Positions 6,960 to 44,154 of a stretch of 64,000 nucleotides of DNA are shown here, piece by piece. This DNA comes from Calothrix sp. NIES-2098. Lineage in GTDB: Bacteria; Cyanobacteriota; Cyanobacteriia; Cyanobacteriales; Nostocaceae. Positions within the stretch are counted from its first letter, which is position 1. Each line of letters starts with the position of its first letter. A model generated the notes under the pieces. The model was not told the DNA's origin, searched no databases, and worked only from the letters and a program-made list of their open reading frames with translations. A program made the position numbers and the translations under genes. The stretch lies in NCBI GenBank assembly GCA_002368175.1, contig AP018172.1, forward strand, positions 93,599 through 157,598, written 5' to 3'.

Positions 6960-8210
6960 TAGGACTTACGCAATTGGCACAAATAGCAGGCAGGGCAAAG
7001 CCCTGACACGCGACAATATAAATCAAACCAAGCACATAAAAATACTTGGGCGCTTCAGTTGCTGAATTAAATAATTAGAAAGCAAGTTATGCTTGATTTG
7101 ATAGATAGTTTTGCCAGTTCTATAGGCTAAATTCTTTAACCTAACCCAAACCAACATTGCACAAGCAATATGATTTCTTTGGAGTCTAGCTTTCCGACAC
7201 TGGCAAGATTCAATGCCAGTTAGTTGTTTAATTTCCCTGTGAAACTCCTCTATTTTCCAACGAATTTTACACACCTGTTGTACAACATCCGTGGAACTTT
7301 GAGATAAATCGTTAGTGGCGACATAATCCGTTCTGTTGGTAGAAACAGTAACCCGGAATAGTTTCACTTTTTTATTAGCTGGGAATCCTTTAATTTTTAT
7401 GATTTTACCACAGTCTAATTCTTCTTGGTTCCATTCTAATAATTCAATCCGTTTATATTTTTCTTGACCAAATGTATCATCAACTAAACGATTATTTTTT
7501 AAAGGGCAATAATAAATTTTGTCTAAGCTATCAATATATAGCATTAAACTGTGTACCGCATACCATGTATCCATCAAAACAGTATCAAATGGTAAAAGCT
7601 TATGATACACAAGGTTTTGGAGCATATCTTTCACATGGTCTATCTTGGTTTTCCCATCGACATCAGGATTAAAAATTCGATAATCTATGACCCAAAATCT
7701 TTGAAGTGTAGGGTTGACATACACGCAGCTAACTACACCAATGCCTTTCAGGACACCATGCTCATTACCACTATATTGTCTTCTGACTATTTCTATTTCT
7801 TCAGAATACTTTTTATCTAAAACGCTATCATCAAATATGATGTAACCATTTTCATCAGACTCAACGACCTCTTTCACGTTATCCCATAGTAAACGAGGTG
7901 TTAATTTTTCGGTTTTCAAATAATAGTTAATTGCGTCATGACTAATACTCTCTAAATGCTCTGCCAAATTGGTAATTGTATAATTAATTTGACTACTTAA
8001 TAAATATTGGCAGTAATTAAGCTTAGTAAATCTCATTACCCTTAGCGAAATTTATCTAATATAACCTCTACCTATTTTCTCACGAATATTTCGATAGTAC
8101 TTCCAAGACAGCGACTTCTATTACGAAGGCAAAGCTTTCAAAATCAGATTTAATTAATACATATGTACTATGAACTAACGATCGCATTGTGCCAGTTGCG
8201 TAAGTCCTGA
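6960..8210 (-). mobile_element. Insertion sequence copy A (1251 bp) with an imperfect ~22-bp terminal inverted repeat TAGGACTTACGCAA(T/C)TGGCACAA and a 4-bp direct repeat TAAT at both flanks.
   Basis: The element is identical to the copy at 42904-44154 in inverted orientation. Its ends were defined by where the two copies diverge from their flanks. TAAT occurs at 6956-6959 and again at 8211-8214. Confidence 0.8.
7023..8036 (-). CDS. DDE transposase of the IS (337 aa), IS4/IS5-superfamily-like.
   Basis: Candidate DDE residues: D in IIFDDSVLDKKY, D in TVLMDTWYAVH, and E in WKIEEFHREIKQLTG (the YREK-like region). The protein is 100 percent identical to the ORF at 43078-44091. Confidence 0.8.
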   Translation of the reverse strand: MRFTKLNYCQYLLSSQINYTITNLAEHLESISHDAINYYLKTEKLTPRLLWDNVKEVVESDENGYIIFDDSVLDKKYSEEIEIVRRQYSGNEHGVLKGIGVVSCVYVNPTLQRFWVIDYRIFNPDVDGKTKIDHVKDMLQNLVYHKLLPFDTVLMDTWYAVHSLMLYIDSLDKIYYCPLKNNRLVDDTFGQEKYKRIELLEWNQEELDCGKIIKIKGFPANKKVKLFRVTVSTNRTDYVATNDLSQSSTDVVQQVCKIRWKIEEFHREIKQLTGIESCQCRKARLQRNHIACAMLVWVRLKNLAYRTGKTIYQIKHNLLSNYLIQQLKRPSIFMCLV

Positions 8211-8860
8211 TAATTCCTAGCTTCAAAACATTGAGAAAAAACTAACAAACAGCAAATAAGCTGCTAAATAAATCACTTATAGAGATTGCATCACTCTAAA
8301 GATAGGTACTTGAGTGAAACTTTGCAAAATCAAGCATTCTTTATCTTAGCTTTATAGATAATTGTGATTTTCTAATCAGCCTTTGTATAATCTTGAGTTT
8401 CATTATTGATACTTCAAATACTTAAAGTAGGCTCGGTGTATTTTATTTACTGTGCTATAACAGAATGAACGTCTGTAATTCTCTTCAGAGCGATCGGTGT
8501 TGCAACTACCTGCTTAATAGCTGTATTTTATACATTAAAAATAAAACACTGACTTAATATTTTCTTGATAAAGCCAGAATTGAAGCTCTAAAAGCCCTTT
8601 ATTTTAAAGCATTTGAGAGACTTTATCCGAACTTTATGGACTAATGTATTGTTTTTATAAACACTTTACGTAAATAAAGAGTATTTACGTAGATAATGGA
8701 AATATCTGCGACAATTAGATTAAGAAGTCCTGATTTTTGCTAGTAGCAGCAAATACAAATAAGGACGTAAATGTTTACTAGCCCCTGAAGAGTTAGTGCT
8801 TGCGACTCATGAAGAAAGTTTGCAGATAGCAAAAATCTAGTAATTCTGGATGAGAAAATT

Positions 8861-9547
8861 ATGAATTTTAAATCAATAGGCTTGGGAATAACTTTGACGT
8901 GTGGCACATTGGCTGTAGGCAATAGTCTAACTATGTCACCAGTTCAGGCGTTTAGCCTAAGTGGAACTGTAAGCTTATACGGGCGTGCTGACTTAGGCAC
9001 TAACACAAGCAATCCACTTTCAACTGCTATTACTTGGTTGAAGCAACCTAGGGTTGAAGAAGGTACGGGCGATTTTTTCAATTTAGAAGATCAACCAGTG
9101 ACAATCAAGAATCTACCTCTGACTCTAAAGGCAGGTGAAGTTGCAGGTAATAAGAATACCTACACATTTAACGCTGTGACTAGTTTCATTGATTTCGGTT
9201 CTTATAGTTTAAATGGACAAACTAAAAAGCTGACCTTTGACCTTGATGCAGGAAAACTTACTAGAACTATACAAACTAATGGTGTTGAGGTAGGTACCGT
9301 TAATAATTTGCCATTTGGACTTAGTGGAAAATTTCTGTTTGGTGATGAGACTGTTGCTACAGGGTCTCTAAGTGGAAATAGAAGCTTCTTGGGTAGTGAT
9401 TCTAGTGGTCTTACTACCATTAGTCTAACTACTCAAGCTGTACCCGAACCTTTAACTATATTGGGTTCAGCAACAGCTTTAGGATTCGGCACTACCCTGA
9501 AGAAGAAATACGGCAAAAAGCAAAACAAAGAAAAGACAACAGTTTAA
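8861..9547 (+). CDS. PEP-CTERM sorting-domain secreted protein.
   Basis: N-terminal signal peptide MNFKSIGLGITLTCGTLAVG. The C-terminus VPEPLTILGSATALGFGTTLKKKYGKKQNK has the PEP motif, a hydrophobic helix and a basic tail. Confidence 0.75.
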   Translation: MNFKSIGLGITLTCGTLAVGNSLTMSPVQAFSLSGTVSLYGRADLGTNTSNPLSTAITWLKQPRVEEGTGDFFNLEDQPVTIKNLPLTLKAGEVAGNKNTYTFNAVTSFIDFGSYSLNGQTKKLTFDLDAGKLTRTIQTNGVEVGTVNNLPFGLSGKFLFGDETVATGSLSGNRSFLGSDSSGLTTISLTTQAVPEPLTILGSATALGFGTTLKKKYGKKQNKEKTTV

Positions 9548-10134
9548 TCGCCTTTTCTAGCATTTTCATTGTGCATAATTGAAGTGGTTACATAACAGAA
9601 GCGCTGGTTGATAATTTTTATTTTTGTTGCATCTAACCATTTGTCTACCCAAAACGAATAATTTTCTTAGCCTCTCAAGAGAGAGTTTAAGAACGAAGAG
9701 ATACAGGTTGACTTTTTGGTATTAGTACAAAATTTCTCCAGTTTATTATATTGTTATCAGGTCTATCCAAACTTTGCCAGCGAATGATTAAATTCTTCAC
9801 AAATAAGAAATGTTGTACTAAACCATAATTCGAGAGATTTTGAAGTACAAGGTGCACTTTCCTAAAAATTCATCACTCAAGCTGCTAGGATGTGAAAATT
9901 ATTTTAGTTAGCCACGATCGCACTTAGCTATAATAAGAAATTAATCTGCTTCATTTGATGAGCTAGGTTGTTTATAATTATTCTAAAAAATCTCAAAATA
10001 TCCAAAATTTCAATTAATAATAGCACCTACCTAAACATAGGCAGGTGCTATATCTTTCCATTTAATTTCAGGGATAAATAATATCTACACGAACTCCCTG
10101 AAGGTTAATATAATCAATTTTCAATCTAAATTTT

Positions 10135-10407
10135 TTACACAGCACTACTGCGGTTTAACAAATTCCACAAGAAAACAGCGATAAGCGCGCCGATAACTGC
10201 AACTATGATACCAGTAATGCTGAGAGTAGAAGCAGTTAAGGCTAACGTTCCCGTAGTAAAGAATACTCCTAAACTACCGCCGATAAATGCACCGATGATA
10301 CCTAACAAGATAGTTCCGAGAATTCCGCCACCTTGATGGCCTGGATAAATAGCCTTAGCGATCGCACCAGCTATTAGACCTAAAAGAAGCCAAGCAATAA
10401 TGTTCAT
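10135..10407 (-). CDS. GlsB/YeaQ/YmgE-family (transglycosylase-associated) small stress membrane protein.
   Basis: The 90-aa sequence MNIIAWLLLGLIAGAIAKAIYPG...GIIGAFIGG matches the conserved YeaQ/YmgE pattern. Confidence 0.8.
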   Translation of the reverse strand: MNIIAWLLLGLIAGAIAKAIYPGHQGGGILGTILLGIIGAFIGGSLGVFFTTGTLALTASTLSITGIIVAVIGALIAVFLWNLLNRSSAV

Positions 10408-11144
10408 TGTTGTGATTGAGTAACTTTTTCCTTCGATAAGTAAACATTAACAATTCACCAAGCAATTACCAATCTGCCATTAGAATTATTTATCCATATA
10501 TCTAAAGAGTAATATAAAAAACGCTATATCTTTTGGTATATGCCTGAAATTTGATAAGTAAAAATTTGAAGAAAAAGCTCCTAGTAGGTCTAAGACTAGG
10601 GGCTTATAAAATTATTGCTTGGTAATATTAGTATATGTATTTATGGTTACGTCTCTCCTCTACTTTAAGAATTAAGCTGCTGTATTTCAAAAGTATTGTT
10701 AACTTTACGTTTGCTAAAGTAAATTAGTAGCTTTTAAGGGAAAATTTTTGTAATAATCCTCTTAAGCATTACTCAGACGTTTGATTATCAAAATCACTTT
10801 ATACCTTTGGACAGAGGTTTATTGGTTTTGGGTTCATGAAAATTTAAATTGAATAATTTATATTACTTTGCATTCACTCCCATTCAATTTAAGTTAAGTC
10901 TGCATTTCTAAACGCTGGCGGGTTTTGTTCAGACTCGATGGTTGGCGAGCTTGTGCAACTTATTTCTGTTTATTCCCAGCACGTTAGACGAAACATCAAA
11001 TCATTCATCAATATCAAGCGCCTAATTGAAAACCGGTTTCAATGTTTGCATAGAAGTGATTTTGAATTATTCTTGATTGCTTTAAATTCTGTAGTCTTTG
11101 GTATTGTCAAAGCAAACTAAAATAATTGTTTCAAGGAGTAAGAA

Positions 11145-11618
11145 ATGGCTAAATCACAAACACAAAATATTCTTTCTTTGATTGAGGCAGAACATCGCCA
11201 AGTTGAAAAACTCTTTGCAGAGGCAGAAAAGGCTGATTCTAATCAGTTATATGATTGCTTTAATCAAATATATAAAGCATTGACATTACACGCTAGGACT
11301 GAAGAACTAGTATTCTATCCAGCAATGCGAGAGTATGAGGAGACTGAACAATATATTGAAGAAGCTGAAGCAGAACACGAAGAGGCTAAAATTCTTCTAG
11401 AGGAAATTAAAGCACTCAAACCGACTGATTCAGAGTTTAAAACAAAAATTAAGGAACTGAAAAAGGCAGTTCAACATCATGTAGGAGAGGAAGAAGAAGA
11501 AATTTTTCCAGCTATATCTGATTGTATGAGCGATCGCCAACTCAGCGAACTGGGTCAGGAGTTTGAAAAAACTAAAGCTCAACTAGAGGAAGAAGTGAAA
11601 GCTGCTATGATAACATAG
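11145..11618 (+). CDS. Hemerythrin-like (HHE cation-binding domain) protein.
   Basis: 157 aa, acidic and helical. His/Glu spacing (EAEHRQVEKLF, LTLHARTEE, EAEHEEAKILLEEI, VQHHVGEEEEEIFP) is consistent with a hemerythrin-type diiron four-helix bundle. Confidence 0.55.
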   Translation: MAKSQTQNILSLIEAEHRQVEKLFAEAEKADSNQLYDCFNQIYKALTLHARTEELVFYPAMREYEETEQYIEEAEAEHEEAKILLEEIKALKPTDSEFKTKIKELKKAVQHHVGEEEEEIFPAISDCMSDRQLSELGQEFEKTKAQLEEEVKAAMIT

Positions 11619-11878
11619 GGCAATTCTTACGCATTCTTTGTTGAGTAGATGATGTATCTTTAAGCATTCACATAAAACTTAGGTAGGTTTTTGATATTTA
11701 GTTGAATATCGGAAACCTACCTAAAAGTTTGTAAATTAAAAATTATACTATTTCACTTTCATAATCATACAAATGCACAAGTAAGGGTTTAGCAATAGTC
11801 ATAACTACGAACTCATTCTTCACTCATAATTAATGCGATGAACCATTAATAAACCGCAGCAACAGAAACTAAATAGCT

Positions 11879-13300
11879 ATGAAAGAAAACCAGGACTACC
11901 ATATGTCTCCCGAAGAATTTCGCCACTGGGGATATAAAACTATTGATTGGATAGCCGACTATTTAGAGAATGTGGAAAAGCTTCCCGTTCTTTCGCAAGT
12001 TGAACCTGGAGATATTCGAGCAAAGTTACCAAATACTGCACCTGTGCAAGGCGAATCTTTTGCGGAGATTATAAAAGATATTGATGAAATAATAGTACCG
12101 GGATTAACAAATTGGCAGTCTCCCAACTTCTTTGCATTCTTTCCTACAGGTATTTCTGCACCTTCAATTCTTGGCGAATTACTGAGTGCTGGTATGGGCG
12201 TGCAGGGAATGTTATGGGCTACTTCTCCGGCTTGTACTGAGTTAGAAACTCATGTTTTAGATTGGCTAGTAGATATGCTGGAATTACCCTTGCATTTTAA
12301 ATCTACTCAAACAGGGGGAGGAGTAATTCAAGATTCAGCTAGCAGTGCAACTCTTGTGGCTTTGGTAGCAGCGAGGGAACAAGCAAAAGCAGATATGAGT
12401 AAATTAGTTGCTTACACTTCTACCCAGGCGCACTCTTCAGTTGAGAAGGGAGTCAAGATTGCGGGAATTAGCCATGAAAATTTGCGCTATATAGAAGTTG
12501 ATGCTAATTATGCAATGAAGCCAGAAGCATTACAACAATGCATAGAAAAAGATATTCAGGCTGGGTTAACGCCTTTTTATTTGGCTGCTACTGTCGGGAC
12601 AACTTCATCAAATGCAATCGATCCTTTACCGCAGTTAGGCGCGATCGCTCACAAATACAATATCTGGTTTCATGTTGATGGGGCAATGAGTGGTACAGCC
12701 GCCTTATGTCCTGAATTTCGCTGGATTCATCGAGGTTTGGAGTTAGCCGATAGCTATTGCTTCAATCCCCATAAATGGATGATGACAAATTTTGACTGTA
12801 CTTGCTTTTACGCGCGCGATCGCGCCAAGCTAATTCAGTCCCTTTCAATCGTGCCAGAATACTTGAAAAATCAAGCCAGCGAATCAGGTGTGGTAATTGA
12901 CTATCGAGACTGGCAAATTCCCCTAGGAAGAAGATTCCGCAGCCTTAAGCTTTGGTTTGTGATTCGCCATTATGGAATTGCAGGCTTACAGCATTATGTG
13001 CGCAAGCATATAGCTTTAGCCCAAGAGTTTGCTGAATGGGTAAAATCAGATTCGCGCTTTGAATTAGCAGTCAATCCGCCGTTAAATTTGGTATGTTTTC
13101 GGCACAAAGGCGGCGATAAGATAAACCTTGCGATCGCTAACAGTCTCAACTCTTCTGGCAAAATATACCTAACTTCCACCAAGCTTGACCAAAAAGTTAC
13201 TCTCAGAATGTCAATTGGACAAGCAACAACTGAGAAATTACACGTGCAGCAAGCTTGGGAATTAATCTGCCAAATAGCCGATGGAATTGTGGGTGTTTAG
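11879..13300 (+). CDS. Pyridoxal-phosphate-dependent group II decarboxylase (aromatic L-amino-acid / tyrosine decarboxylase-like).
   Basis: The 473-aa protein has DSYCFNPHKWMMTNFDCTCFYARDR (PLP-lysine region of DDC/TyrDC-type enzymes). The N-terminus FRHWGYKTIDWIADYLENV is typical of AADC. Confidence 0.85.
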   Translation: MKENQDYHMSPEEFRHWGYKTIDWIADYLENVEKLPVLSQVEPGDIRAKLPNTAPVQGESFAEIIKDIDEIIVPGLTNWQSPNFFAFFPTGISAPSILGELLSAGMGVQGMLWATSPACTELETHVLDWLVDMLELPLHFKSTQTGGGVIQDSASSATLVALVAAREQAKADMSKLVAYTSTQAHSSVEKGVKIAGISHENLRYIEVDANYAMKPEALQQCIEKDIQAGLTPFYLAATVGTTSSNAIDPLPQLGAIAHKYNIWFHVDGAMSGTAALCPEFRWIHRGLELADSYCFNPHKWMMTNFDCTCFYARDRAKLIQSLSIVPEYLKNQASESGVVIDYRDWQIPLGRRFRSLKLWFVIRHYGIAGLQHYVRKHIALAQEFAEWVKSDSRFELAVNPPLNLVCFRHKGGDKINLAIANSLNSSGKIYLTSTKLDQKVTLRMSIGQATTEKLHVQQAWELICQIADGIVGV

Positions 13301-13968
13301 CTAGGAGTACCAAGAGATAGCGGTTGATGGGGATTTGCGGCTTTGATTAGCAACTCGCGAACTTCATCATCTGTAGTTTGCCCAAAGCGTTCATACCATT
13401 GACCAACGCTGTAGAAAGGTTTGGGTGTCGCCAGACAAACCATTTCGTCTACTTTGTCTGCTAATTGTGAGTAAGCTGTGGATGGTGCAACTGGGACTGC
13501 AACTACAATCCGGGTAGGTTGCTGTTTTCGGACTGCAAGAATCGCCGCCCACATGGTTGCACCAGTTGCTAAACCGTCATCTACCAAAATCACTGTCTTT
13601 CCTTGTAGTTTTGGGAAAGGGCCATTCCCACGATACAGCTGTTCTCGTCGCTTTAATTCTTGATATTCTTGCGCCGCTACTTCAGCAATATTTTGTTCCG
13701 AAAGATTGAGGTCGCGAACAATATCTTCATTAAGTATTTCTACATCACCAGATGCGATCGCTCCCATTGCCAACTCTTGTTGATTGGGTACGCCTAATTT
13801 GCGTACTAACAAAACATCTAATTCAATATTTAATACTGTAGCAATTTCAAAGGCAATAGGTACGCCACCTCTTGGTAAGGCTAGCACCAATACATCCGGG
13901 CGGTTAGCATAGCCTGTTAAATCTTGAGCTAACAACCGACCAGCTGAACTTCGGTCTGTAAATAACAT
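13297..13968 (-). CDS. Phosphoribosyltransferase-domain protein (predicted PRTase).
   Basis: PRPP-binding motif VILVDDGLATGATMWAAI. The gene is convergent with the decarboxylase and overlaps it by 4 bp. Confidence 0.7.
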   Translation of the reverse strand: MLFTDRSSAGRLLAQDLTGYANRPDVLVLALPRGGVPIAFEIATVLNIELDVLLVRKLGVPNQQELAMGAIASGDVEILNEDIVRDLNLSEQNIAEVAAQEYQELKRREQLYRGNGPFPKLQGKTVILVDDGLATGATMWAAILAVRKQQPTRIVVAVPVAPSTAYSQLADKVDEMVCLATPKPFYSVGQWYERFGQTTDDEVRELLIKAANPHQPLSLGTPS

Positions 13969-14176
13969 GAGTAATAAGTTGTTGCTACTATTTTTATCCT
14001 ATGAACCGATTTTAAAAAGCTAATAATTTCCTGTCTTCTTACTAATGGAGCGACATGTTCAGACTATGTATCTGCCTAAAGTATGAGTTAGTAATCGATC
14101 GGAGCACTTTAGCTTGAAGATACCTAATTAAAGCTATTATCTAAATTTATCTAGTCAATCTATACAAATAACTAAG

Positions 14177-16063
14177 CTAGTTTGCATTATTCGAGTATTT
14201 ATTAATTTCTAAATAGCTTTTCCAAAAATCTTTATTAGTAAGTTCCGGTAGTGTTTGTCTATAAAGTTGTCTTAAGCGAGAAAACTTAATTAAAAGTTGA
14301 AAACAGATGATTATTATTTTCACAAAAACTTTTAGGAATTCCCACCGTGAAACTTTCACAACAAAGCCTTCCTGATTACTCAAGTTATAGTACAAAGCTT
14401 TCTTGGCTCTGAAAAAGTTTATCGGTCTATACCCATGCATCGGAACAATAGTATATCCTTTTTCTGATAACTTATTATCGTTATGGAATAAAAAGTTAGG
14501 TAATAAATGACCATTTAATGTAATTCTTCTTAGCCAACGATGTAGGGTAGTCTCTGTCTCCTCAATACTTTTCTCATACTTAACATAAACAAAAGGTAGC
14601 TCTAGTTTCTTTATTGCTTTCTCTCCCATACGCAAAATTTCCAAGTTATTCTTTTCTGGGTCAACTGTTCTCAAGCGATCGGGGCCATTTAAAAAATCTG
14701 AAGCTGCTTGTAGAATGAGATGTGCAGTTTTGTACCTATAGCAACATGCTTCTTTCAGGCTAAATTTTAAAATCTTTTTAATTGCGCTGATGCTGCTGTA
14801 TGTATCAGAGTGAATAGCACTTAAAATCATTTCGTTTTTTATAGAATAATAATGTTGTGGTGCAGGAGAACACTTACTTTCAAAAGACTCATGCCAGACA
14901 CATATACCATTTAGAGTTACATTTTTTTGCTTTAATCTTATTCCTAGTTCTATGTCATCACCTCTCACAAAAAAAGGATAGGGTAGGTTAAGATTATCTA
15001 TAGTTTTTGTTGGAAAGCAAAAGAGCCACCAGCCATTATAGTTAACGTATTCCTCAATTTCATTGAATAAAACAGTTTTTAAAAGTCTTAAATCGAGATC
15101 CGGCTTGACTCTAACAACCTCATTATCCCAGATAGCCCCATTTTCGTGCTGAATATATTTACGATCTAGCTTTAACATACTGCCACCAATACACAAGCTC
15201 TTGTCATTAAGAACTCTTTGTAAGTTATAAATTCTTTCAAAAGCTTCTGGCGCTATAACAACATCATCATCCATAAATATAATATGTGAAAAATCATTTT
15301 CACGTTCCAACACTTCTATAATACCTCTCGTATAACCGCCACTTCCTCCTGTATTTTTATTAGGGACTAAATGAATTTTAGAATTTAGAATACTATTTAA
15401 TGTTCTGCCATTGTCAATTATAAATATTTCAAATTTGTTTTCAATATCTGGTTTAATAAAAAGATATTTGTCTAATAATTCAATATTTCTATAAACATAT
15501 GCTTCTCTTTTATATGTACATATAACAATAGCAATCTTCTCATTGGCCTCTGTAGAGAGATTAGCATTTGTATGAAAGTAACCATTTCCAAATAAACAAT
15601 TATCTTTTAAAGCTTGAATTTCAACATAAAGCAAGCCTTTATAACCTTGAATTTTTATATCTTGAAACACGCTAACTTCATCTAAAGTTTCGGTGGTAAT
15701 AACCGTTTGCTTTACTAAATTTGCTTTTTCTGAGAAATAATCAACTTGGAATAACTTAATTTGAAATTTTCCTTGTAGATATAAGTTAATATTTATTGTT
15801 TTTACACTTGTATATTCCTGCCATTTCTGTACTGAGAAAGCGTTAAAATAAGTATTAAATTTGATAATTCCACCTTCTTTAAGTTCAACTCTATTTTGCT
15901 CATAATTCAGCAAACATTTAGAATTTAGCCGGAGAAAGAGTTCTTCTGTAGTACAAATATCAGTATTTGGTAAGATAATATTTTGTAGTTTAACAGCAGT
16001 TAGAGTGTTTTGCAGGTTTGTTTTTGGGTTTGCAATAACCTCTGTCATTTTCAATTTCTCCAT
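14177..16063 (-). CDS. Glycosyltransferase family 2 protein (628 aa) with an N-terminal non-catalytic domain.
   Basis: GT-A signatures are present: IAIVICTYKRE, FIIDNG, GGSGGYTRGIIE, and IIFMDDD (DXD). Confidence 0.75.
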   Translation of the reverse strand: MEKLKMTEVIANPKTNLQNTLTAVKLQNIILPNTDICTTEELFLRLNSKCLLNYEQNRVELKEGGIIKFNTYFNAFSVQKWQEYTSVKTININLYLQGKFQIKLFQVDYFSEKANLVKQTVITTETLDEVSVFQDIKIQGYKGLLYVEIQALKDNCLFGNGYFHTNANLSTEANEKIAIVICTYKREAYVYRNIELLDKYLFIKPDIENKFEIFIIDNGRTLNSILNSKIHLVPNKNTGGSGGYTRGIIEVLERENDFSHIIFMDDDVVIAPEAFERIYNLQRVLNDKSLCIGGSMLKLDRKYIQHENGAIWDNEVVRVKPDLDLRLLKTVLFNEIEEYVNYNGWWLFCFPTKTIDNLNLPYPFFVRGDDIELGIRLKQKNVTLNGICVWHESFESKCSPAPQHYYSIKNEMILSAIHSDTYSSISAIKKILKFSLKEACCYRYKTAHLILQAASDFLNGPDRLRTVDPEKNNLEILRMGEKAIKKLELPFVYVKYEKSIEETETTLHRWLRRITLNGHLLPNFLFHNDNKLSEKGYTIVPMHGYRPINFFRAKKALYYNLSNQEGFVVKVSRWEFLKVFVKIIIICFQLLIKFSRLRQLYRQTLPELTNKDFWKSYLEINKYSNNAN

Positions 16064-16257
16064 TTATAAATGCCGAATAAGAAGCAAAAGTGCTACTAAA
16101 AGTTGCTGAATACACATCTCTCATTGCTAATAGATTAAACAGCGATTAATATACCACCAAAACTAGCCTCGATAACGCAATTTTAAATTTCGTATTAGCA
16201 ACTTTTAATTGCTAGAGTATCTTAAAGTATCCACATCAAAAAATCATAACTAGATAG

Positions 16258-18561
16258 CTAACAAGCCTCTTCACTCAAATTAGCTTTATTAAAATTAGTT
16301 TTATGCAGATTTAACCCAGCTTTCCAGCCAACGAGAGTTCCGGCAAAAGTTTGCTGAATGTATCTTATTAAAGTTGAGATTGGAAGATGATGTGTAAATT
16401 TTAAACGCAGTATCCTGAGTAAGCAACGATAGGTTAGCAGTAATATTAAGCGAGTTAAAAAAATAGCAAATGGAATTTTTTTAAGGCCATGCTTAAAAGC
16501 AAAGTAAGTTGTATTTTTTGCTAAAGAATACCAGCAGGTAAGATGCTTTTGATCGATGCGATTATGGCTAGGCTGAGGATAGTGATTTACAGTAACGTCA
16601 GCATAATGAACTTCATAGCCAGCTTTGATTATACGTAAACAAACATCAGTTTCATCGAGAAAGTAATCAAAAAATTCATCATAGCCATTAATTTTTTCAA
16701 GTAAATCTTTTCTAAAAGATGAATTTGTGCCCATTAAACCGTTAAACCAAAAACCATCTGCTTGGTTATAATCAGCAGCATCAGCAGAGCGAATGGCAAT
16801 TGTTTCGCTCAAAACATTGGTAATTCCATGACAAAATTGTAAGGGTTGATTATTACGAGTTAAGTCTCTAACTTTACCTCCAACTGCACCACATTTGTTA
16901 CCATATAAAGAATAGGTAAATATTAATTTTTCTATCCATTCCGAGGGTGGAATGGCATCATCATCAAAAAAAGCAATAATTGAGCCTGATGCTAATTTGA
17001 TTCCCTTATTTCGGGAGTAACTAATATTGTGCGGTTCAACTTTCAATAATTTTACTGTCAAGCTACTATGATGATTTAGACGATCAACTAGTTCACTCGT
17101 CTGGTTTGTTGAGGAAGCATCAATCACAATCACTTCAAAATTTTGGTAGCATAGGAGTTCTAGCGATTTCAGGGCTTTCTCTAAAAAATGAGAGCGATCG
17201 CTCGTACAAATTACAATTGATACTAAGGGAGAACCTAAATTTGCTGCTGTGTTCGGCATTGGTGGTAACTTAAACTTAAGTTTGCGAACTTGCCAGTATA
17301 TCTGCCACATTTGACTGATAGTTTGATTAACTGAATGAATCAAACTTAAAAAATTAATTGAAACAGGGACGTAACCATTACCCGTAAAATAGTAAACTTG
17401 CTTTGCAAAATTGAGAACGTAAAGTTTGGGTTTTTGATAACTAATAAAAGCTATATCTATTGGTTTATTAAAAAATGCGAGTAGCCATAGCCAAAAATAC
17501 TGAACTAATTTTTGAGGTGGATGCCACAATGTAAGTTGTTGCTCCACCTCCATTTTGTTTAAAATTTGACTTTGTAAATCATCTTGATAAATATTAGATT
17601 GTACAAACACTGTAGAAGGCTGCTGAATAATTTCGTCTAAAGAATACTCAATATAATTTAGCGGTCTAGGCATCTTTCCTCGAATATTTGCAAGGAAGTC
17701 TTGAAAACCTGTAAGAGAAACTTCAGCTAAAAAGTATCGCCCTGTTGCAGCGTAATAAACTAGACGCGGCAAACTTACAATAACTCTTTTTAATACGAAA
17801 TCAGGTCGATGCTTTTGCCAACAGTAACAAAGATTGCGTTCATCATAATAATTAACCCAGGGTCTGCATTTAAAATCAGGTGAATGATGCCAAACAATCG
17901 AAGCTGGATTCGCCGCTACAATCCAACCAGCTTGCTTTGCTCGCAAACACCACTCTACATCATCGAAATGTAAGAAATAATCTTCAAAAACTCCGATTTC
18001 TTGAACAATTTCTTTACGTACTAATAGCGATGCTGCCGCACAAACATCCACATTAATGTAATCTCTACCCTTGAGGATTTCCTCATTTGAAATATTACTG
18101 TAATTACCAAAGTTAGTTTTTAAATGTGCTTTAGTATTGTTAATAAAACTACCTATTTCTTGAATAGTATTTGGTTCCTGTAGTTTGCGAATTTGAGAAC
18201 CAACTAATCCTACTTCAGAATATTTTTGTAAAGTTTGAACTAATGTTTCTAGAGCTAGCGGATCTAGACGAACATCATTATCAAGTAGCCAGATGTAATC
18301 GTATTCAAGTTCGCTCACAAATTGTAAACCGTAAGAAAATCCTCCAGAACCACCTAAATTACTACCTGTTTGCAAAACTTTGATAAAAGAATAGTGGTTT
18401 TCTAAGTAAATTTGAGTACCATCTGTTGAAGCATTATCTACAACATAAATATCTAGATGGAAATTTGGTGCATTGAGTTTTTTGATATCTTCAATTAGCA
18501 AGCAAATATGATGTAGCTTGTTCCAAGTTACAATCACAGTAGCTACTTTAATATTCCTCAT
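16258..18561 (-). CDS. Two-domain glycosyltransferase family 2 protein (767 aa).
   Basis: Two separate GT-A modules. The first has VATVIVTWNK...VVDNASTDGT...GGSGGF...HFDDVEW. The second has VSIVICTSDRSHFLEKALKSLEL...EVIVIDASSTNQT...FFDDDAIP. Confidence 0.8.
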   Translation of the reverse strand: MRNIKVATVIVTWNKLHHICLLIEDIKKLNAPNFHLDIYVVDNASTDGTQIYLENHYSFIKVLQTGSNLGGSGGFSYGLQFVSELEYDYIWLLDNDVRLDPLALETLVQTLQKYSEVGLVGSQIRKLQEPNTIQEIGSFINNTKAHLKTNFGNYSNISNEEILKGRDYINVDVCAAASLLVRKEIVQEIGVFEDYFLHFDDVEWCLRAKQAGWIVAANPASIVWHHSPDFKCRPWVNYYDERNLCYCWQKHRPDFVLKRVIVSLPRLVYYAATGRYFLAEVSLTGFQDFLANIRGKMPRPLNYIEYSLDEIIQQPSTVFVQSNIYQDDLQSQILNKMEVEQQLTLWHPPQKLVQYFWLWLLAFFNKPIDIAFISYQKPKLYVLNFAKQVYYFTGNGYVPVSINFLSLIHSVNQTISQMWQIYWQVRKLKFKLPPMPNTAANLGSPLVSIVICTSDRSHFLEKALKSLELLCYQNFEVIVIDASSTNQTSELVDRLNHHSSLTVKLLKVEPHNISYSRNKGIKLASGSIIAFFDDDAIPPSEWIEKLIFTYSLYGNKCGAVGGKVRDLTRNNQPLQFCHGITNVLSETIAIRSADAADYNQADGFWFNGLMGTNSSFRKDLLEKINGYDEFFDYFLDETDVCLRIIKAGYEVHYADVTVNHYPQPSHNRIDQKHLTCWYSLAKNTTYFAFKHGLKKIPFAIFLTRLILLLTYRCLLRILRLKFTHHLPISTLIRYIQQTFAGTLVGWKAGLNLHKTNFNKANLSEEAC

Positions 18562-18964
18562 AAAATTTATATGTTTGTTTTGGAATATTGCTCGACTTCT
18601 TTAGGTGATTTGAATAGCGTTAGCCAAATCTCCAAAATGTAATTTGCAAACTTATGAGAAAAGATTTCCAAAATTTACCGCAATTGACTTTTAATTTCTT
18701 CTATCTAAAGTTGTGTAAGTCTCTATCTTAAGATCGATATAATGCGTTAAATAATTTAGTAGCAGTAATTACAAACTTATTTAAAATATAATTTACGTAG
18801 CTCTAAATACACATATAATATTAAGTATAGGATTAATATTTGATTTTGGAAATATACATAGAATGGGCATTGCCCACCCTACAAGTACTATTGCCTTTTA
18901 AGCAATAACAAATGAGAAATAACAAAAATATAATTTGACTTTTTTTCACCTAGACAATTAGAAA

Positions 18965-19789
18965 ATGGAATTACTTTCAGAGCCTTTAAGCGTAGAATAT
19001 TTAAATATTGAAATTTCGGGGCTACCTAAGTCATTAAAAAATACTCAGATAGTGCAAATGTCAGATTTCCATTTTGATGGATTGCTACTATCGGAAGAAT
19101 TATTAACACAAGCAATTAATACTAGCAATCAAATTAATCCCGATCTAGTATTACTTACAGGTGATTTTGTGACTCATAGCCCTAAACCAATACATCAACT
19201 AGCAAGTCGGTTGAAGAATTTAAAAAGTCGGGTTGGAATTTATGCAGTTTTAGGAAATCATGACCTATATTTCCCTAACTCTAAAGCAGAAATTACTAGC
19301 GCTTTAACATCTGTAGGTATCCAAGTACTTTGGAATCAAGTAGCTTATCCTTTAGGCTCTGATTTGGCTTTAGTAGGACTTCCTGATTATTGGTCGTCGG
19401 AATTTAACCCTGGATTGGTAATGCGGCAAATAGATGTTAATACACCGCGAATCGTGTTATCTCACAATCCAGATAGCGCCGAAGCACTACAAAAATGGCG
19501 TGTGGATTTACAACTTTCAGGACATACTCACGGCGGTCAAATAGTGATTCCGGGAATTGGTTCTGTACCTAGTTGGATTCATGCTTCTCGTCATGACATT
19601 CCGGAATTTCTCTGGGCTTGGATACCTTTTTTAAAAGGGAAATGGCCAAAAGTTGTGAAAAATTGGCAATGGAGTCAAGGTTTACATTGGGTGGGTACAA
19701 ACAAGCTTTATGTAAATCGCGGTTTGGGAACTTTTCCCCCAGGACGTTGGCATTGTCCGCCGGAAGTGACAGCGATCGCTTTAATTTAA
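18965..19789 (+). CDS. Calcineurin-like metallophosphoesterase.
   Basis: Motifs SDFHFDG, LTGDFVTH, GNHD and GHTHGG are present. Confidence 0.8.
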   Translation: MELLSEPLSVEYLNIEISGLPKSLKNTQIVQMSDFHFDGLLLSEELLTQAINTSNQINPDLVLLTGDFVTHSPKPIHQLASRLKNLKSRVGIYAVLGNHDLYFPNSKAEITSALTSVGIQVLWNQVAYPLGSDLALVGLPDYWSSEFNPGLVMRQIDVNTPRIVLSHNPDSAEALQKWRVDLQLSGHTHGGQIVIPGIGSVPSWIHASRHDIPEFLWAWIPFLKGKWPKVVKNWQWSQGLHWVGTNKLYVNRGLGTFPPGRWHCPPEVTAIALI

Positions 19790-19901
19790 TATTAATAAGC
19801 CTGGGGATCGTAAATTTCTAGTTGGGGCTGTCATTTGTCATTGGTCATGGGTGAAGAAATTTTAGACGAGAGATTTTTGACTACATTACAGATAAAGCAA
19901 T

Positions 19902-20594
19902 ATGAGCGACGCCCTAACGCAAAAAATTCAGCAGGATTTTGATAGAATCGCCTTACTTCAGTCCCAGCAATGGAATCATAACAATCATTACCACCGTTTC
20001 TTACTCAAGCAATTACCATCTCATTGCGAGAGTATTTTAGATATAGGCTGTGGTACTGGGGTTTTCTCTCGTCTTTTAGCTCAACGTGCCGAGCGAGTCA
20101 TTGCGGTAGACTTATCTGCAAAAATGATTGAAGTCGCGCAGCAACAGTCTCAAAGTTATCGAAATATAGACTTCCAAGTAACTGATATATTGCAATGGGA
20201 TTTTCCTGTTAAACATTTTGATGCGATCGCTTCGATAGCTACAGTTCATCATTTACCCTTGGAAATATTATTGCCGAAAATTCAGGCGGCTCTCAAACCG
20301 GGTGGAAAGCTGTTAATTTTAGACTTGGTTAAATCCGAAGGAATAGCGGATATATTCAGCAATGCTCTTGCTTTTCCCTTAAACTTGACATTACAGCTAC
20401 TTAAAAACAAACGCCTCAGACCAACACCAGAAGCGATCGCAGCATGGCGAGAACATGGTATTACTGATGAATATCTGACGCGATCGCAAGCAGAACAAAT
20501 ATATTTGAAATTCTTAACTGGAGCGAAAATCAAAAAGCATTTGTTCTGGCGTTACTCAGTTGTATGGGAAAAACCATTAGCGCCAGGCTCGTAG
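19902..20594 (+). CDS. Class I SAM-dependent methyltransferase.
   Basis: Motif I ILDIGCGTGVFSRLLA; post-I acidic residue VIAVDLS; motif II FDAIASIATVHHL. Confidence 0.8.
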   Translation: MSDALTQKIQQDFDRIALLQSQQWNHNNHYHRFLLKQLPSHCESILDIGCGTGVFSRLLAQRAERVIAVDLSAKMIEVAQQQSQSYRNIDFQVTDILQWDFPVKHFDAIASIATVHHLPLEILLPKIQAALKPGGKLLILDLVKSEGIADIFSNALAFPLNLTLQLLKNKRLRPTPEAIAAWREHGITDEYLTRSQAEQIYLKFLTGAKIKKHLFWRYSVVWEKPLAPGS

Positions 20595-20777
20595 TTGCGC
20601 TTTAGCGCTATAGCAGAGTAGCGCAACTACAAACCAGAAAATTCGCTTCTTCAGGACTTAAACAAAATATTAACGAGAAACTTACAGGCAATTCTAGCCA
20701 ATACTCGGCATACTTAAAGAGGGAGAGCAGTTTAAACAACTCCCTGCTATCTGAGGCGTGAAGGTAAACCAGCGACA

Positions 20778-21317
20778 ATGAGACGTACAACCACTAGTAG
20801 ATCGGCTAATAGTTCTAGATCATCTTCATTCCAATCTTCCATATTTAACTTCACCACCATAGCAATTTTGGGGGGAGTATTTGTCTTAGGTATTGGAATT
20901 GGTATAGCTTTTAGCTCGACAACAACTTTATCCCCATCAAATGTGGCTTCCCGTGAATTTATTGATACCAAAGCACCAAACCCTGAGATTTGCGTGCAAT
21001 ACGGAGCCAGCGCTATGGTGATGGATGCCAGACTTTTTGTAACTCTTAACCCTTTTAATGTCTACGTTGCTCAACCGAGTATGCGCCCTGGATGCGTTCT
21101 CCGTCAAAATAACTGGGCACTTTTAGAGCAGCGCAAGTTAGTAACATCTGACCAAGTAAGAGAATGTAAGAATCGCCTAAACACTTTTGGCTTTACGGGT
21201 AACTTAGATACTGACAAACCTGATATTAGATGCATATATCAAAATGAAGCTGCTCAGAACTTCTTTATGTCTCAACCAGGAGCAGTTGCCCCACCACAAG
21301 AAACGGATAGATTTTAA
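20778..21317 (+). CDS. Conserved hypothetical membrane-anchored protein (cyanobacterial DUF-type).
   Basis: 179 aa, with a Ser/Thr-rich N-terminus followed by a single TM helix (IAILGGVFVLGIGIGIAF) and a soluble domain containing conserved Cys residues. No catalytic motif recognised. Confidence 0.4.
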   Translation: MRRTTTSRSANSSRSSSFQSSIFNFTTIAILGGVFVLGIGIGIAFSSTTTLSPSNVASREFIDTKAPNPEICVQYGASAMVMDARLFVTLNPFNVYVAQPSMRPGCVLRQNNWALLEQRKLVTSDQVRECKNRLNTFGFTGNLDTDKPDIRCIYQNEAAQNFFMSQPGAVAPPQETDRF

Positions 21318-21430
21318 ATAGACTTAAACTTAGTGGTTCATCGCATAAGTTATCAAGGGTTGCAAGGAAGCATCCGACTTCTTGAATCAGTCGGATATCT
21401 TGCAGCCAGCAAAATTAATGCGATAAACCA

Positions 21431-22513: not shown

Positions 22514-22841
22514 GAAATGCCAAGCTTCTGCAAGTATTTAGAATTCGACACTAATATCGAGAGCAAAACTTCAAAATAATATGAGGTTTTTAATTGTTAA
22601 TAATTAAGTTGATACTTATATGCTAATACTTAAAGCTGTACGAACGTAATTTATATTACAAAAATTGATTTTATATTTTTATAAATTTTTATGAGAAATA
22701 TTGATGTATTTTAGCCAGTAGGTGCATTATGCGAAAGGCTAACGCACACCCTAAATATTTTTATGCTACATATACTTAGATTCTTCAAAAATTAAATCGG
22801 ATTGCTATTGTTTTACTCATATAATGAGCCAAATTCGTTTG

Positions 22842-29264: not shown

Positions 29265-29417
29265 TTTATTTCCTTATAGAAAATGGGGAGATTGGGGAAG
29301 GCAGTATAGCAATCTTAAGCTAAGAGTAAGCTTAGATAATGAAGAGTTGAGATTTTTTACAGATTGCGATCGCCAGTTAAATATTTCAGAAAAAACTGAT
29401 ATCTTTAAACAAAAAAT

Positions 29418-29909: not shown

Positions 29910-30039
29910 AATTCGGGGTTAGTAACCCCAAGGTGGAAGTCAAAAGAATTGTATTTCAGTCTTTTGCGTGATTTTAAATCGTCTCATTACAATTCTTCAT
30001 GACAGGCAATTATCAATAGACTTCTTGCACGAATACAAA

Positions 30040-30235
30040 ACTTACCCTCATCCCCCAGCCCCTTCTCCCAAAATTGGGAGAAGGGGAGCCGATAAGCTGC
30101 GAAGCATCTAATTTGTATATAAGACGCGGGCTTTCCGTCCCGCACTACAATTATTTTGCGTTTTTGACTTACATAATTTAGCTGCACATCAGCCGATCAA
30201 AGTCCCTCTCCCATGCATGGGAGAGGGATTTAGGG
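30040..30235. repeat. Cluster of GC-rich perfect hairpin (palindromic) elements.
   Basis: ccccttctcccaaaattgggagaagggg forms an 11-bp stem and gtccctctcccatgcatgggagagggat forms a 10-bp stem. These are typical cyanobacterial intergenic hairpin repeats. Confidence 0.6.
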
Positions 30236-30274
30236 TGAGGGTAAAGATTCATGCAAGAGGTCTAATTAAAGCTG

Positions 30275-30483
30275 CCGAAATAGCAATTGTAGTATCGAAA
30301 ACAGCAATTGTAGCCTCCGAAATCGCAATTGTAGTATCGAAAACAGCAATTGTAGCCTCCGAAATCGCAATTGTAGTCTCCGAAATGGCAATTGTAGCCT
30401 CCGCAACCGCAATCGTATTCTCCGAAATGGCAATTGTAATCTCCGCAACCGCAATTGACGTACCAAAAATAGCAAATGCGTAG
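30275..30483. repeat. Tandem array of about 10 copies of a 21-bp unit, GAAAT(N)GCAATTGTAG(N3)TCC. Same family as 6681-6928.
   Basis: gaaatcgcaattgtagtatcg / aaaacagcaattgtagcctcc / gaaatggcaattgtagcctcc ... It lies 200 bp upstream of the MVP gene. The heptad-repeat ORFs (30217-30483 +, 30249-30527 -, and others) are artefacts. Confidence 0.8.
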
Positions 30484-40561: not shown

Positions 40562-40774
40562 ATGTCTAACCAGATTACACTTCAGGTAAATGGAGAAAGC
40601 CATAGCTGTTCATCCCAAACTCCTTTACCAGAATTACTCCAACAACTTGGTTTTAATCCCCGCTTAGTAGCAGTAGAGTATAATGGCGAGATTTTACACC
40701 GCCAATTTTGGACAGAAACAAAAGTGCAACAAGGCGATCGCTTAGAAGTTGTCACTATTGTTGGTGGTGGGTGA
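40562..40774 (+). CDS. thiS: Sulfur-carrier protein ThiS.
   Basis: 70 aa ending in the Gly-Gly C-terminus (TIVGGG), with a ubiquitin-like beta-grasp pattern. Located downstream of thiE. Confidence 0.8.
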   Translation: MSNQITLQVNGESHSCSSQTPLPELLQQLGFNPRLVAVEYNGEILHRQFWTETKVQQGDRLEVVTIVGGG

Positions 40775-40792
40775 ATCAATCTATTGAGTCAT

Positions 40793-40853
40793 GGGACATG
40801 GGGCATTGGGCATTGGTTATTTCTCCCCACACTTCCCACACTCCCCACACTCC
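40793..40853. repeat. Short tandem repeats (GGGCATT-type heptamers, then CCCACACT(C) 8-9-mers) between thiS and the GT4 gene.
   Basis: gggacatggggcattgggcattgg ... ccccacacttcccacactccccacactccc. Confidence 0.7.
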
Positions 40854-40854
40854 C

Positions 40855-42048
40855 TCATTCAGCCTTATATAACGAACGATGAAATGTCTTCCTCTGGGCT
40901 AATTCTTTACCTTTGCGACCGAGTTGTTCGCGTAGGGGTTGGTCTTTACACAAGCGATTGAAAGCTTGAAAGACTTCATAACCCGAATTTGGGTTAACGA
41001 GTATGCCGTTTTCTTCGTGGTGAATTGCATCGATGACACCGCCTAAACGAGAAGCAATCACAGGTTTACCAAAGTAACTCGCTTCTAGGTAAACGATGCC
41101 AAAACCCTCGATACTGCTAGCTTTTTTATCGAAGAGATTCAGCATAGCAAATATATCACAGGCTGCATAATAACTAGCTAATTCGCGATCGGGTACATCT
41201 CCGGCAAAGTGTACCCTGCGATCGACTCGCAAGCGTTGTGCTAAAGATTTCAGTTCCGCTTCACAAGGGCCTTGCCCGCACATTATGTAGTGAACATCCA
41301 CCCCAACAGTTAGTAGTAGGGGTAAATTATCAATTACACGGTTAAAGCTTTTGTGCTTAACTAGCTTTCCCACCGAGAGAATCACTACTGCTGTATCGGG
41401 AATATTGTATGTCTGGCGCACGTTTGCACGTAACTCAGCTAAATTACCTTGACTGGTGACTTGGCTAAATTTCTCAGCCCTAACCATTGGGTTAATAACG
41501 TGGGTAGGGGTATCCAATCTTAACTTAGCTCTGAGATAATCTTGTGTATAGGAACTGTTACAGACAATCCCTTCAGCTCGTTTAAGTGTTAATTTAAATA
41601 GCGATCGCCATATCGGATTGCGTAACCCACAAAGAATATCATTACCGTGAAGATAGATAAAAAAACGAATAGGGAGGAAATAGCTCAGGAGTAAAAGTGA
41701 TGGAAACTCGTAGCCATGACCCCATTCAATATAGCGATAGTGATAGCGAAAATATAGTTTAATTGCTAGAACAAATGAATAAATCAGATTGAAGCAAGGA
41801 TTGAGAAAACTCCAATCCCTAGTAATTGGCCAGCGATATATCGGAAATTTTTGATCGCGATCGAATACTTTATCGCCTGAGCAAGCAGCAGCAAGAACAA
41901 TTACCCTTTCTGGATCTTGCAGACAACGATTATATATATACTCACTAATTACAGCTTCTTTTGGTAGAAAGCTGCGAGATATAACTAGAATATCTGGATA
42001 GGCAGTTTTGTCTCTAACATTTGTCGCCAGTTGTGAAATATGTTCCAT
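40855..42048 (-). CDS. Glycosyltransferase family 4 (GT-B, GT1/GT4-type).
   Basis: C-terminal donor-binding motif EGFGIVYLEASYFGKPVIASRLGGVIDAIHHEENGILV (the E-X7-E region). Confidence 0.8.
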   Translation of the reverse strand: MEHISQLATNVRDKTAYPDILVISRSFLPKEAVISEYIYNRCLQDPERVIVLAAACSGDKVFDRDQKFPIYRWPITRDWSFLNPCFNLIYSFVLAIKLYFRYHYRYIEWGHGYEFPSLLLLSYFLPIRFFIYLHGNDILCGLRNPIWRSLFKLTLKRAEGIVCNSSYTQDYLRAKLRLDTPTHVINPMVRAEKFSQVTSQGNLAELRANVRQTYNIPDTAVVILSVGKLVKHKSFNRVIDNLPLLLTVGVDVHYIMCGQGPCEAELKSLAQRLRVDRRVHFAGDVPDRELASYYAACDIFAMLNLFDKKASSIEGFGIVYLEASYFGKPVIASRLGGVIDAIHHEENGILVNPNSGYEVFQAFNRLCKDQPLREQLGRKGKELAQRKTFHRSLYKAE

Positions 42049-42903
42049 AATTAAGTTTTCTAACTATATTGCGAATAATTTTTAAGTTCTCATACTCTTA
42101 ACTAAGGCAAAGAAATTAGTGCCAATTTACTGCTGTCCTGGCACTGTAATTTTTGTGAATTTAAGACTTCGATCGAGATAAATTGGGTGTCAACTAAAGG
42201 ACGCAGTACGATGTATGATTTATTAACGCCAATCACATCTTACTCTCATCAATTATACGAAAGCAGTTAAGTGACTTGGCTACTCAGGGAAATCGCGGTT
42301 ACGGTAAATTCCCTTGATGGTGATGCGTAGTGCGGGCAGCTTGCCCCAGAGCGACCTACACTATAGATGTTACACGCGCATTCCTTTCCGTAATTACCAT
42401 GAGGAATGTGCTTTATCTGTATCTAATTTTCTACTGTTTTATCACATTCGCCAATGGCTACCGTGTAAAAAGCTGAAATCGACATCATTGTTTACTTTCA
42501 GTATTTATATCAGGTATGGCAAGCAAATTTGTAAAAATAGTTATCACTTGATGATACATAGGCTGTAGAACCATAATTCTCAATCCTTGTTTCAGCGATA
42601 GGAGTATACAAATTTCAGCAGTATTTGAAAACAGTAGCCGGAAATATTTTCTGTTTAACGTTGTATTGTTATTTTTTTAATTTAAATTCCTCACCACATA
42701 ATATTTGTCTACCTGATTAACAAGCATTAAACTTTGGTACTGCCAGCTAAATCAATTGCTCATAGACTATTGTGGTAATTGCTAAATTTAGTTTCTATCA
42801 ATAGGCTATCCTGAAAACTACTCAAATTTATGCCAAAATGCCAAAAAGTCGTTCGTTACTATAAAGAAAGTTCTCCATTAGTTAAGTCGATGGTGTAAAT
42901 ATC

Positions 42904-44154
42904 TCAGGACTTACGCAACTGGCACAATGCGATCGTTAGTTCATAGTACATAGGTATTAATTAAATCTGATTTTGAAAGCTTTGCCTTCGTAATAGAAGT
43001 CGCTGTCTTGGAAGTACTATCGAAATATTCGTGAGAAAATAGGTAGAGGTTATATTAGATAAATTTCGCTAAGGGTAATGAGATTTACTAAGCTTAATTA
43101 CTGCCAATATTTATTAAGTAGTCAAATTAATTATACAATTACCAATTTGGCAGAGCATTTAGAGAGTATTAGTCATGACGCAATTAACTATTATTTGAAA
43201 ACCGAAAAATTAACACCTCGTTTACTATGGGATAACGTGAAAGAGGTCGTTGAGTCTGATGAAAATGGTTACATCATATTTGATGATAGCGTTTTAGATA
43301 AAAAGTATTCTGAAGAAATAGAAATAGTCAGAAGACAATATAGTGGTAATGAGCATGGTGTCCTGAAAGGCATTGGTGTAGTTAGCTGCGTGTATGTCAA
43401 CCCTACACTTCAAAGATTTTGGGTCATAGATTATCGAATTTTTAATCCTGATGTCGATGGGAAAACCAAGATAGACCATGTGAAAGATATGCTCCAAAAC
43501 CTTGTGTATCATAAGCTTTTACCATTTGATACTGTTTTGATGGATACATGGTATGCGGTACACAGTTTAATGCTATATATTGATAGCTTAGACAAAATTT
43601 ATTATTGCCCTTTAAAAAATAATCGTTTAGTTGATGATACATTTGGTCAAGAAAAATATAAACGGATTGAATTATTAGAATGGAACCAAGAAGAATTAGA
43701 CTGTGGTAAAATCATAAAAATTAAAGGATTCCCAGCTAATAAAAAAGTGAAACTATTCCGGGTTACTGTTTCTACCAACAGAACGGATTATGTCGCCACT
43801 AACGATTTATCTCAAAGTTCCACGGATGTTGTACAACAGGTGTGTAAAATTCGTTGGAAAATAGAGGAGTTTCACAGGGAAATTAAACAACTAACTGGCA
43901 TTGAATCTTGCCAGTGTCGGAAAGCTAGACTCCAAAGAAATCATATTGCTTGTGCAATGTTGGTTTGGGTTAGGTTAAAGAATTTAGCCTATAGAACTGG
44001 CAAAACTATCTATCAAATCAAGCATAACTTGCTTTCTAATTATTTAATTCAGCAACTGAAGCGCCCAAGTATTTTTATGTGCTTGGTTTGATTTATATTG
44101 TCGCGTGTCAGGGCTTTGCCCTGCCTGCTATTTGTGCCAATTGCGTAAGTCCTA
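42904..44154 (+). mobile_element. Insertion sequence copy B (1251 bp), identical to copy A but inverted, flanked by the 4-bp direct repeat TATC.
   Basis: TATC is present at 42900-42903 and again at 44155-44158. Ends: TCAGGACTTACGCAACTGGCACAA ... TTGTGCCAATTGCGTAAGTCCTA. Confidence 0.8.
43078..44091 (+). CDS. DDE transposase of the IS (337 aa), identical to the ORF at 7023-8036.
   Basis: The protein sequence in the ORF track is 100 percent identical. Confidence 0.8.
   Translation: MRFTKLNYCQYLLSSQINYTITNLAEHLESISHDAINYYLKTEKLTPRLLWDNVKEVVESDENGYIIFDDSVLDKKYSEEIEIVRRQYSGNEHGVLKGIGVVSCVYVNPTLQRFWVIDYRIFNPDVDGKTKIDHVKDMLQNLVYHKLLPFDTVLMDTWYAVHSLMLYIDSLDKIYYCPLKNNRLVDDTFGQEKYKRIELLEWNQEELDCGKIIKIKGFPANKKVKLFRVTVSTNRTDYVATNDLSQSSTDVVQQVCKIRWKIEEFHREIKQLTGIESCQCRKARLQRNHIACAMLVWVRLKNLAYRTGKTIYQIKHNLLSNYLIQQLKRPSIFMCLV

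Follow-up and report, generated by a model that had tools for sequence, protein, structure and literature searches.

Two inverted copies of an IS701-family insertion sequence bracketing a 34.7-kb block in Calothrix sp. NIES-2098

A 64,000-nucleotide stretch of the Calothrix sp. NIES-2098 chromosome (contig AP018172.1, positions 93,599 to 157,598; hereafter the window) contained two inverted copies, A and B, of one insertion sequence (IS) about 35 kb apart. The pair had been described in an earlier reading made from the letters alone (the sequence-only reading), and both copies were found where that reading had placed them, as one inverted repeat. They very probably go back to separate insertions into the chromosome of an IS701-family IS that is present there in multiple copies, since each copy is flanked by its own pair of matching duplications, and ATAAT at one outer end differs from TATCT at the other. 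The observation was correct but routine, in that the element is a known, annotated, multi-copy IS and ordinary mobile DNA. The analysis added a 5-bp target duplication, a length of 1250 bp, one difference between the copies, and a firm assignment to the subgroup IS701_2.

The element, its ends and its transposase

The ends of copies A and B were fixed from 63 related copies, and the following features were assigned.

6955..6959, no strand: outer target duplication of copy A, ATAAT
6960..8209, minus strand: IS copy A, 1250 bp, IS701-family
7023..8036, minus strand: transposase gene of copy A, 337 amino acids, intact
8210..8214, no strand: inner target duplication of copy A, ATAAT
8215..42899, no strand: bracketed block of native chromosome, about 34.7 kb
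42900..42904, no strand: inner target duplication of copy B, TATCT
42905..44154, plus strand: IS copy B, 1250 bp, differing from copy A only at IS position 49
43078..44091, plus strand: transposase gene of copy B, 337 amino acids, protein the same as in copy A
44155..44159, no strand: outer target duplication of copy B, TATCT

The window held a single long inverted repeat, with arms at 6951-8210 and 42904-44163. When the copies were compared base by base, 1249 of 1250 bases were equal, and the perfect identity reported earlier gave way to one mismatch. This lay at IS position 49, 5' of the transposase ATG, and was T in copy A (window 8161) and G in copy B (window 42953). In IS orientation, copy A started with CAGGACTTACGCAACTGGCACAA and ended with TTGTGCCAATTGCGTAAGTCCTA. 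The terminal inverted repeats noted in the sequence-only reading were present, with their extent corrected to an imperfect 23 bp with 21 matches. The repeat core, GGACTTACGCAA(C/T)TGGCACA, was present at four places in the window and in none of 100 shuffles. Beyond copies A and B, the window contained no further IS copies or solo ends.

With the two copies alone, the border between IS and duplication was ambiguous, and 4, 5 or 6 bp all fitted by eye. The comparison set was composed of 79 loci encoding transposase relatives in species-representative genomes, and both ends were located in 63 of them; all named hosts of the 79 loci were cyanobacteria, mainly heterocyst-forming Nostocales. Of the 63 related copies, 59 started with CA, and 59 ended with TG. 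The window element ended with TA, not TG, and had CAATTG in its right repeat against the consensus CAGTTG. The TA end was found in 4 of the 63 relatives, and this variant works, because three of those four had perfect duplications.

A perfect 5-bp direct duplication flanked 47 of the 63 related copies, and the duplicated 5-mers were AT-rich at every position. In the complete genome of Aliinostoc sp. HNIBRCY26, 11 of 11 copies obeyed the rule of CA...TG ends with a 5-bp duplication. Models of 4 bp scored equally well across the relatives, but these were sub-strings of the 5-bp match. The length of the element in the relatives ranged from 1206 to 1404 bp. The ends and duplications of the 63 relatives fixed the border, and therefore the window element is 1250 bp long with a 5-bp duplication. 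The sequence-only reading had given 1251 bp, its ends being one base off, and 4-bp duplications (TAAT and TATC), because a flanking T had been counted as part of the IS. The duplication length is 5 bp for both copies, with different 5-mers (ATAAT and TATCT). A 5-mer match across 1250 bp occurred at 0.14% of window positions (empirical 0.0014). Coincidental flanking matches, which the sequence-only reading had named as what could overturn it, would have a chance of about 2e-6 for both copies together (empirical, this window).

The remaining 16 of the 63 related copies were without a perfect 5-bp duplication. Some of these 16 may be insertions that have decayed or traces of rearrangement mediated by the IS. 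Extra partial IS ends were seen beside the element at two of the relative loci (L058 and L053).

The 337-residue transposase open reading frame (ORF) described earlier was intact and the same in both copies. The protein scored 421 bits (cut-off 250) with the NCBIfam model NF049921 (transpos_IS701_2), the match spanning positions 2-317 of the 318 in the model. With NF033540, the main IS701 model, it scored 83 bits (cut-off 150), and IS4 models scored lower still. The low score with NF033540 places the window element in a separate IS701 subgroup. Neither IS5 models nor ISH3 models were among the NCBIfam matches of the transposase. Of the "IS5- or IS701-like" family named earlier, the IS701 part therefore stood and the IS5 part did not, and by its profile scores the transposase can be firmly assigned to the IS701 family, subgroup IS701_2. 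In Pfam, DDE_Tnp_1 was above its cut-off, DDE_5 was just under its cut-off, and DDE_Tnp_2/ISC1217 gave a weak match of 25 bits against a cut-off of 20.2. A search of PDB sequences returned no usable homolog of the transposase.

Residues D69/D70, D156, and E263 were candidate catalytic residues, the DDE triad being assigned by motif position and not by structure. They were invariant in an alignment of 16 homologs with identities down to 67%, in which the spacing C256-x2-R259-x3-E263-x6-K270 was also kept. Copies A and B have the anatomy of a functional IS, with an intact transposase, conserved residues, inverted repeats, and perfect duplications.

The complete genome of Calothrix sp. NIES-2098 comes from the NIES collection (PMC8634303). 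The exact transposase protein was found there under at least four accessions (BAY06895, BAY06964, BAY06993, and BAY07012), named "IS701 family transposase" in GenBank. The PEP-CTERM neighbour of copy A matched the NIES-2098 protein BAY06965.1 with 100% identity. By gene count, BAY06964 corresponds to copy A because it directly precedes the PEP-CTERM gene, and BAY06993, 29 coding sequences beyond it, fits copy B. The element is thus multi-copy and already annotated in this genome. Among the matches listed, the best protein match in other genomes and metagenomes was 96-97% identical, and more than 500 relatives, as a lower bound, were confirmed in one scan. In total, 4132 proteins matched the transposase at E <= 1e-120. 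The plasmid collection contained no near-identical copy, the best match there being 87%.

Insertion sites and the enclosed block

Copy A was located 588 nt past the stop of the DAHP-synthase gene and about 650 nt before the start of the PEP-CTERM gene. Copy B was flanked by two divergently oriented genes, with 856 nt separating it from the start of the GT4 glycosyltransferase gene and about 717 nt from the start of the DUF1517 gene. Both insertions were intergenic, and no gene was visibly disrupted. To the right of copy B, a 412-residue ORF that begins with TTG had no record; the real gene there encodes a 326-residue DUF1517 protein and starts at 44872.

A 21-nt tandem-repeat family (consensus approximately AATAGCAATTGAGTACTCCAA) formed two intergenic arrays, at 6679-6920 (11.5 units) and 30275-30475 (8.6 units). 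The first array stopped about 35 nt before copy A, and the second was located about 200 nt upstream of the major vault protein (MVP) gene. ORFs running through these arrays look spurious.

Before insertion, site A would have read ...CATTCTTTATAATTCCTAGC... and site B ...GGTGTAAATATCTATAGCTT.... For copy B, the IS and one TATCT were removed, and the reconstructed sequence was aligned to relatives. Nostoc sp. T09 aligned colinearly to the IS-removed site, with no gap at the junction (E 4e-9, small database):

Site B, window, reconstructed: TAAGTCGATG-GTGTAAATATCTATAGCTTATTTGG
Site B, Nostoc sp. T09: TAAGTAGATGAGCCTAAATAACTATAGCTGCTTTGG

Nostoc sp. T09 held a single 5-mer, TAACT, where the window had two TATCT separated by the IS, as a true duplication of 5 bp predicts. 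In Aulosira sp. ZfuVER01, the closest relative at site B, an indel replaced 378 nt around the insertion point, so this genome provided gene-order evidence only.

A stretch of about 800 nt upstream of GT4, at 42049-42850, shared 84.6% identity with Aulosira sp. ZfuVER01 and 81% with Nostoc sp. T09. It contained no obvious gene and was unusually conserved for non-coding DNA. Copy B lay 54 nt past its end.

At the right boundary, the GT4 gene (inside the block) and the DUF1517 gene (outside) adjoined in the same relative orientation and with no IS in all relatives examined, namely Aulosira sp. ZfuVER01, Nostoc sp. T09, and two Tolypothrix assemblies. The right flank was colinear with the Aulosira contig through VanY, Mem_trans, Pribosyltran, MFS, Rotamase, and DUF1517 outside the block, and the same colinearity continued inside it through GT4, ThiS, and ThiD2/TMP-TENI. 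At the left boundary, the DAHP-synthase gene (outside) and the PEP-CTERM gene (inside) adjoined in two relatives, one genome assembly and one metagenome contig, with no IS in the 512-bp spacer between them. Gene order was continuous across both boundaries in IS-free relatives, and therefore the 34.7-kb block is native chromosome in its ancestral orientation and not part of a mobile unit. The GC skew across the window was flat and uninformative on past inversion.

The block contained genes for a PEP-CTERM protein, a hemerythrin, a PLP decarboxylase, glycosyltransferases, Na/H exchangers, MVP, an ABC sulfate-type transporter, ThiD2/TMP-TENI, and GT4. Of the interior genes named in the sequence-only reading, those for MVP, the solute-binding protein and permeases, ThiD2/TMP-TENI, and the glycosyltransferases were recovered. 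The enclosed genes, including the bacterial MVP homolog, are accordingly native chromosome rather than IS-borne cargo.

In the proposed course of each insertion, the transposase would cleave the element at its CA/TG ends, which it would then join to the target strands at positions offset by 5 bp. Gap repair after the staggered cuts would produce the 5-bp direct duplication in the AT-rich intergenic target. This staggered-cut chemistry is proposed by analogy with IS4-type DDE transposases.

Several points weigh against the reading as two separate insertions. The empty-site match in Nostoc sp. T09 came from a different species, with 72% local identity and TAACT rather than TATCT. The search for empty sites in relatives, proposed in the sequence-only reading, succeeded for site B in Nostoc sp. 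T09 and gave nothing alignable at the nucleotide level for site A, where relatives of the PEP-CTERM gene were at most 65% identical in amino acids and the spacers could not be aligned across the junction. One metagenome scan with the left flank of site A returned no match. Furthermore, all independent assemblies with these flanks, DRR315827 and DRR315828, were occupied, so that they offer no strain-level before/after pair. Both are short-read assemblies that probably come from the same strain, and their sites were judged occupied because their contigs stop at the ends of the IS. At the inner junction of copy B, Logan contigs L001 and L002 run 30 nt into the IS before breaking off, and Logan contig L092 (DRR315827) begins tg/ATAAT..., so site A is occupied there too.

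Separate insertion nevertheless agreed with the duplication belonging to each copy, the differing outer flanks, the gene order, and the empty site in T09, and on this point the sequence-only reading was upheld. Both insertions are probably recent. The recent activity proposed earlier is reasonable, with at least four identical loci in this genome against 96-97% identity elsewhere, although gene conversion could also keep copies alike. It is unlikely that the near-identity arose by gene conversion between older copies, or by polishing of the assembly consensus, and not by recent transposition. At least four loci with identical proteins in the genome would offer many conversion templates, and same-strain short-read assemblies collapse the IS. 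Copies A and B, on the other hand, retain one private difference, which argues against copying by the assembler. Both duplications are perfect, as in young insertions, whereas 16 of the 63 relatives have no perfect one, and the nearest copies elsewhere are only 96-97% identical in protein among the matches listed, which argues against old copies.

An inverted repeat of 1250 bp with 99.9% identity is ample substrate for RecA-dependent recombination, and homologous recombination between copies A and B could possibly invert the block. No inversion has become fixed in this assembly, because the duplications are matched and gene order is conserved. That the block is an active invertible segment, flipped in part of the population and altering the expression of the boundary genes, is highly unlikely. 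The location of copy B in a divergent promoter region would suit such a switch, but one flip would leave hybrid pairs, ATAAT/AGATA and ATTAT/TATCT, where the assembly shows matched duplications, and the orientation of the block equals that of IS-free relatives on both sides. The 35-kb interval of the NIES-2098 chromosome is nonetheless flagged as one that could invert or confuse assemblies.

A composite transposon, in which the pair and the 34.7 kb arrived or can move as one unit, is largely refuted and barely credible: near-identical inverted copies bracketing a block are the classic layout of the Tn5/Tn10 type, but the outer flanks read ATAAT on the left and TATCT on the right with a matched pair for each copy, the genes flanking each boundary adjoin in IS-free relatives, and the cargo consists of housekeeping-type chromosomal genes whose order is shared with Aulosira, Nostoc sp. 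T09, and Tolypothrix.

Other features of the window

Within the block, the plus-strand gene at 30687-33314 encoded an 875-residue protein with the full MVP domain set (Vault repeats, Vault_2/3/4, and MVP_shoulder). The ortholog in Nostoc sp. T09 was likewise located beside the ABC transporter genes, and this shared position shows that MVP is a conserved chromosomal gene in the clade.

Diverged inverted repeats with 72-75% identity corresponded to the divergent ORFs 35779-36924 (minus strand) and 37447-38583 (plus strand). The first carried solute-binding-protein domains, and the second was taken as its paralog, since a pair of such genes is arranged in this way in Aulosira. Between the ThiD2/TMP-TENI and binding-protein genes, a 205-residue ORF at 38686-39303 (minus strand) had no Pfam match. 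At its position, Aulosira and Tolypothrix have a phage-type integrase of 420-423 residues, and the ORF may be a remnant or a replacement.

To the right of the block, three 37-nt CRISPR-like repeats (GTTTCAAACAACTATTACCCCGCAAGGGGATTGAAAC) were found at 46449-46637 with a spacing of 72-75 nt, between the DUF1517 and rotamase genes. There was no cas gene among the scanned ORFs neighbouring these repeats, and an Rfam scan of the window found nothing, including no CRISPR family at threshold. Heptanucleotide tandem repeats were located at 27737-27774, 33789-33823, 53341-53374, and 63728-63759 (AGTCAAG, ATTTGTC twice, and AATTCAA). We take these to be of the STRR type typical of heterocystous cyanobacteria.

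Comparison with known elements

Like the composite transposons Tn10 and Tn5, the window has two inverted copies of one IS that bracket a segment. Unlike them, it has no shared duplication at the outer ends, and the enclosed DNA is syntenic with the native chromosome of relatives.

The type element of the IS701 family is IS701 of Calothrix/Fremyella PCC 7601 (De Palmenaer et al. 2008, PMC2266710). The mark of the family is a YREK motif lacking Tyr (PMC2266710). The window transposase is, like that of IS701, a single IS4-related DDE enzyme in which the Tyr of YREK is missing (C256-R259-E263-K270); its C-R-E-K is the IS4-type YREK without Tyr and therefore fits this mark. The two also have in common terminal inverted repeats, a target duplication that is short and AT-rich, and a host among the heterocystous cyanobacteria. 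Classical IS701 elements are 1400-1550 bp long with a target duplication of exactly 4 bp (PMC2266710), whereas the window subgroup is about 1245-1400 bp long (1250 bp here) and duplicates 5 bp. The IS701 end signature is ---YACT-Y--YR, a consensus that does not represent the whole family (PMC2266710). Of it, the window end, CAGGACTTACGCA, shares ACT (positions 5-7) and YR (positions 12-13) and no other positions. The NCBI subgroup IS701_2 thus departs from textbook IS701 by its 5-bp duplication and short length.

ISAba11 is said, in its ISfinder and published descriptions, to make 5-bp duplications. Its subgroup, from Acinetobacter, is placed in the IS701 family, and the title of Rieck et al. 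2012 gives it an HHEK signature. Compared with the signature in that title, the window transposase has C-R-E-K, and its host belongs to a different phylum.

The ISH3 family, described as archaea-only, has a length of 1225-1500 bp, CRGT ends, a duplication of 4-5 bp, and the transposase motif Y-x2-R-x3-E-x3-R (PMC2266710). The 1250 bp and the 5-bp duplication of the window element fall within the ISH3 ranges, and its CAGG ends agree with CRGT at three of four positions. The spacing R-x3-E-x3-R is present in the window protein (R259, E263, and R267), and the weak DDE_Tnp_2/ISC1217 match is a further likeness. The differences are a Cys where ISH3 has Tyr and a cyanobacterial rather than archaeal host. 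At the DNA level, the features of the window subgroup seem to resemble ISH3 more than IS701. We consider it rather doubtful that the cyanobacterial elements of about 1.25 kb with CA...TG ends, a 5-bp duplication, and the motif C-R-E-(R)-K could be a distinct bacterial lineage between classical IS701 and ISH3, or else that some cells of the population could carry the 34.7-kb block flipped between its inverted IS copies. Exact ends and the correct duplication length are now given for an IS that is very widespread in Nostocales.

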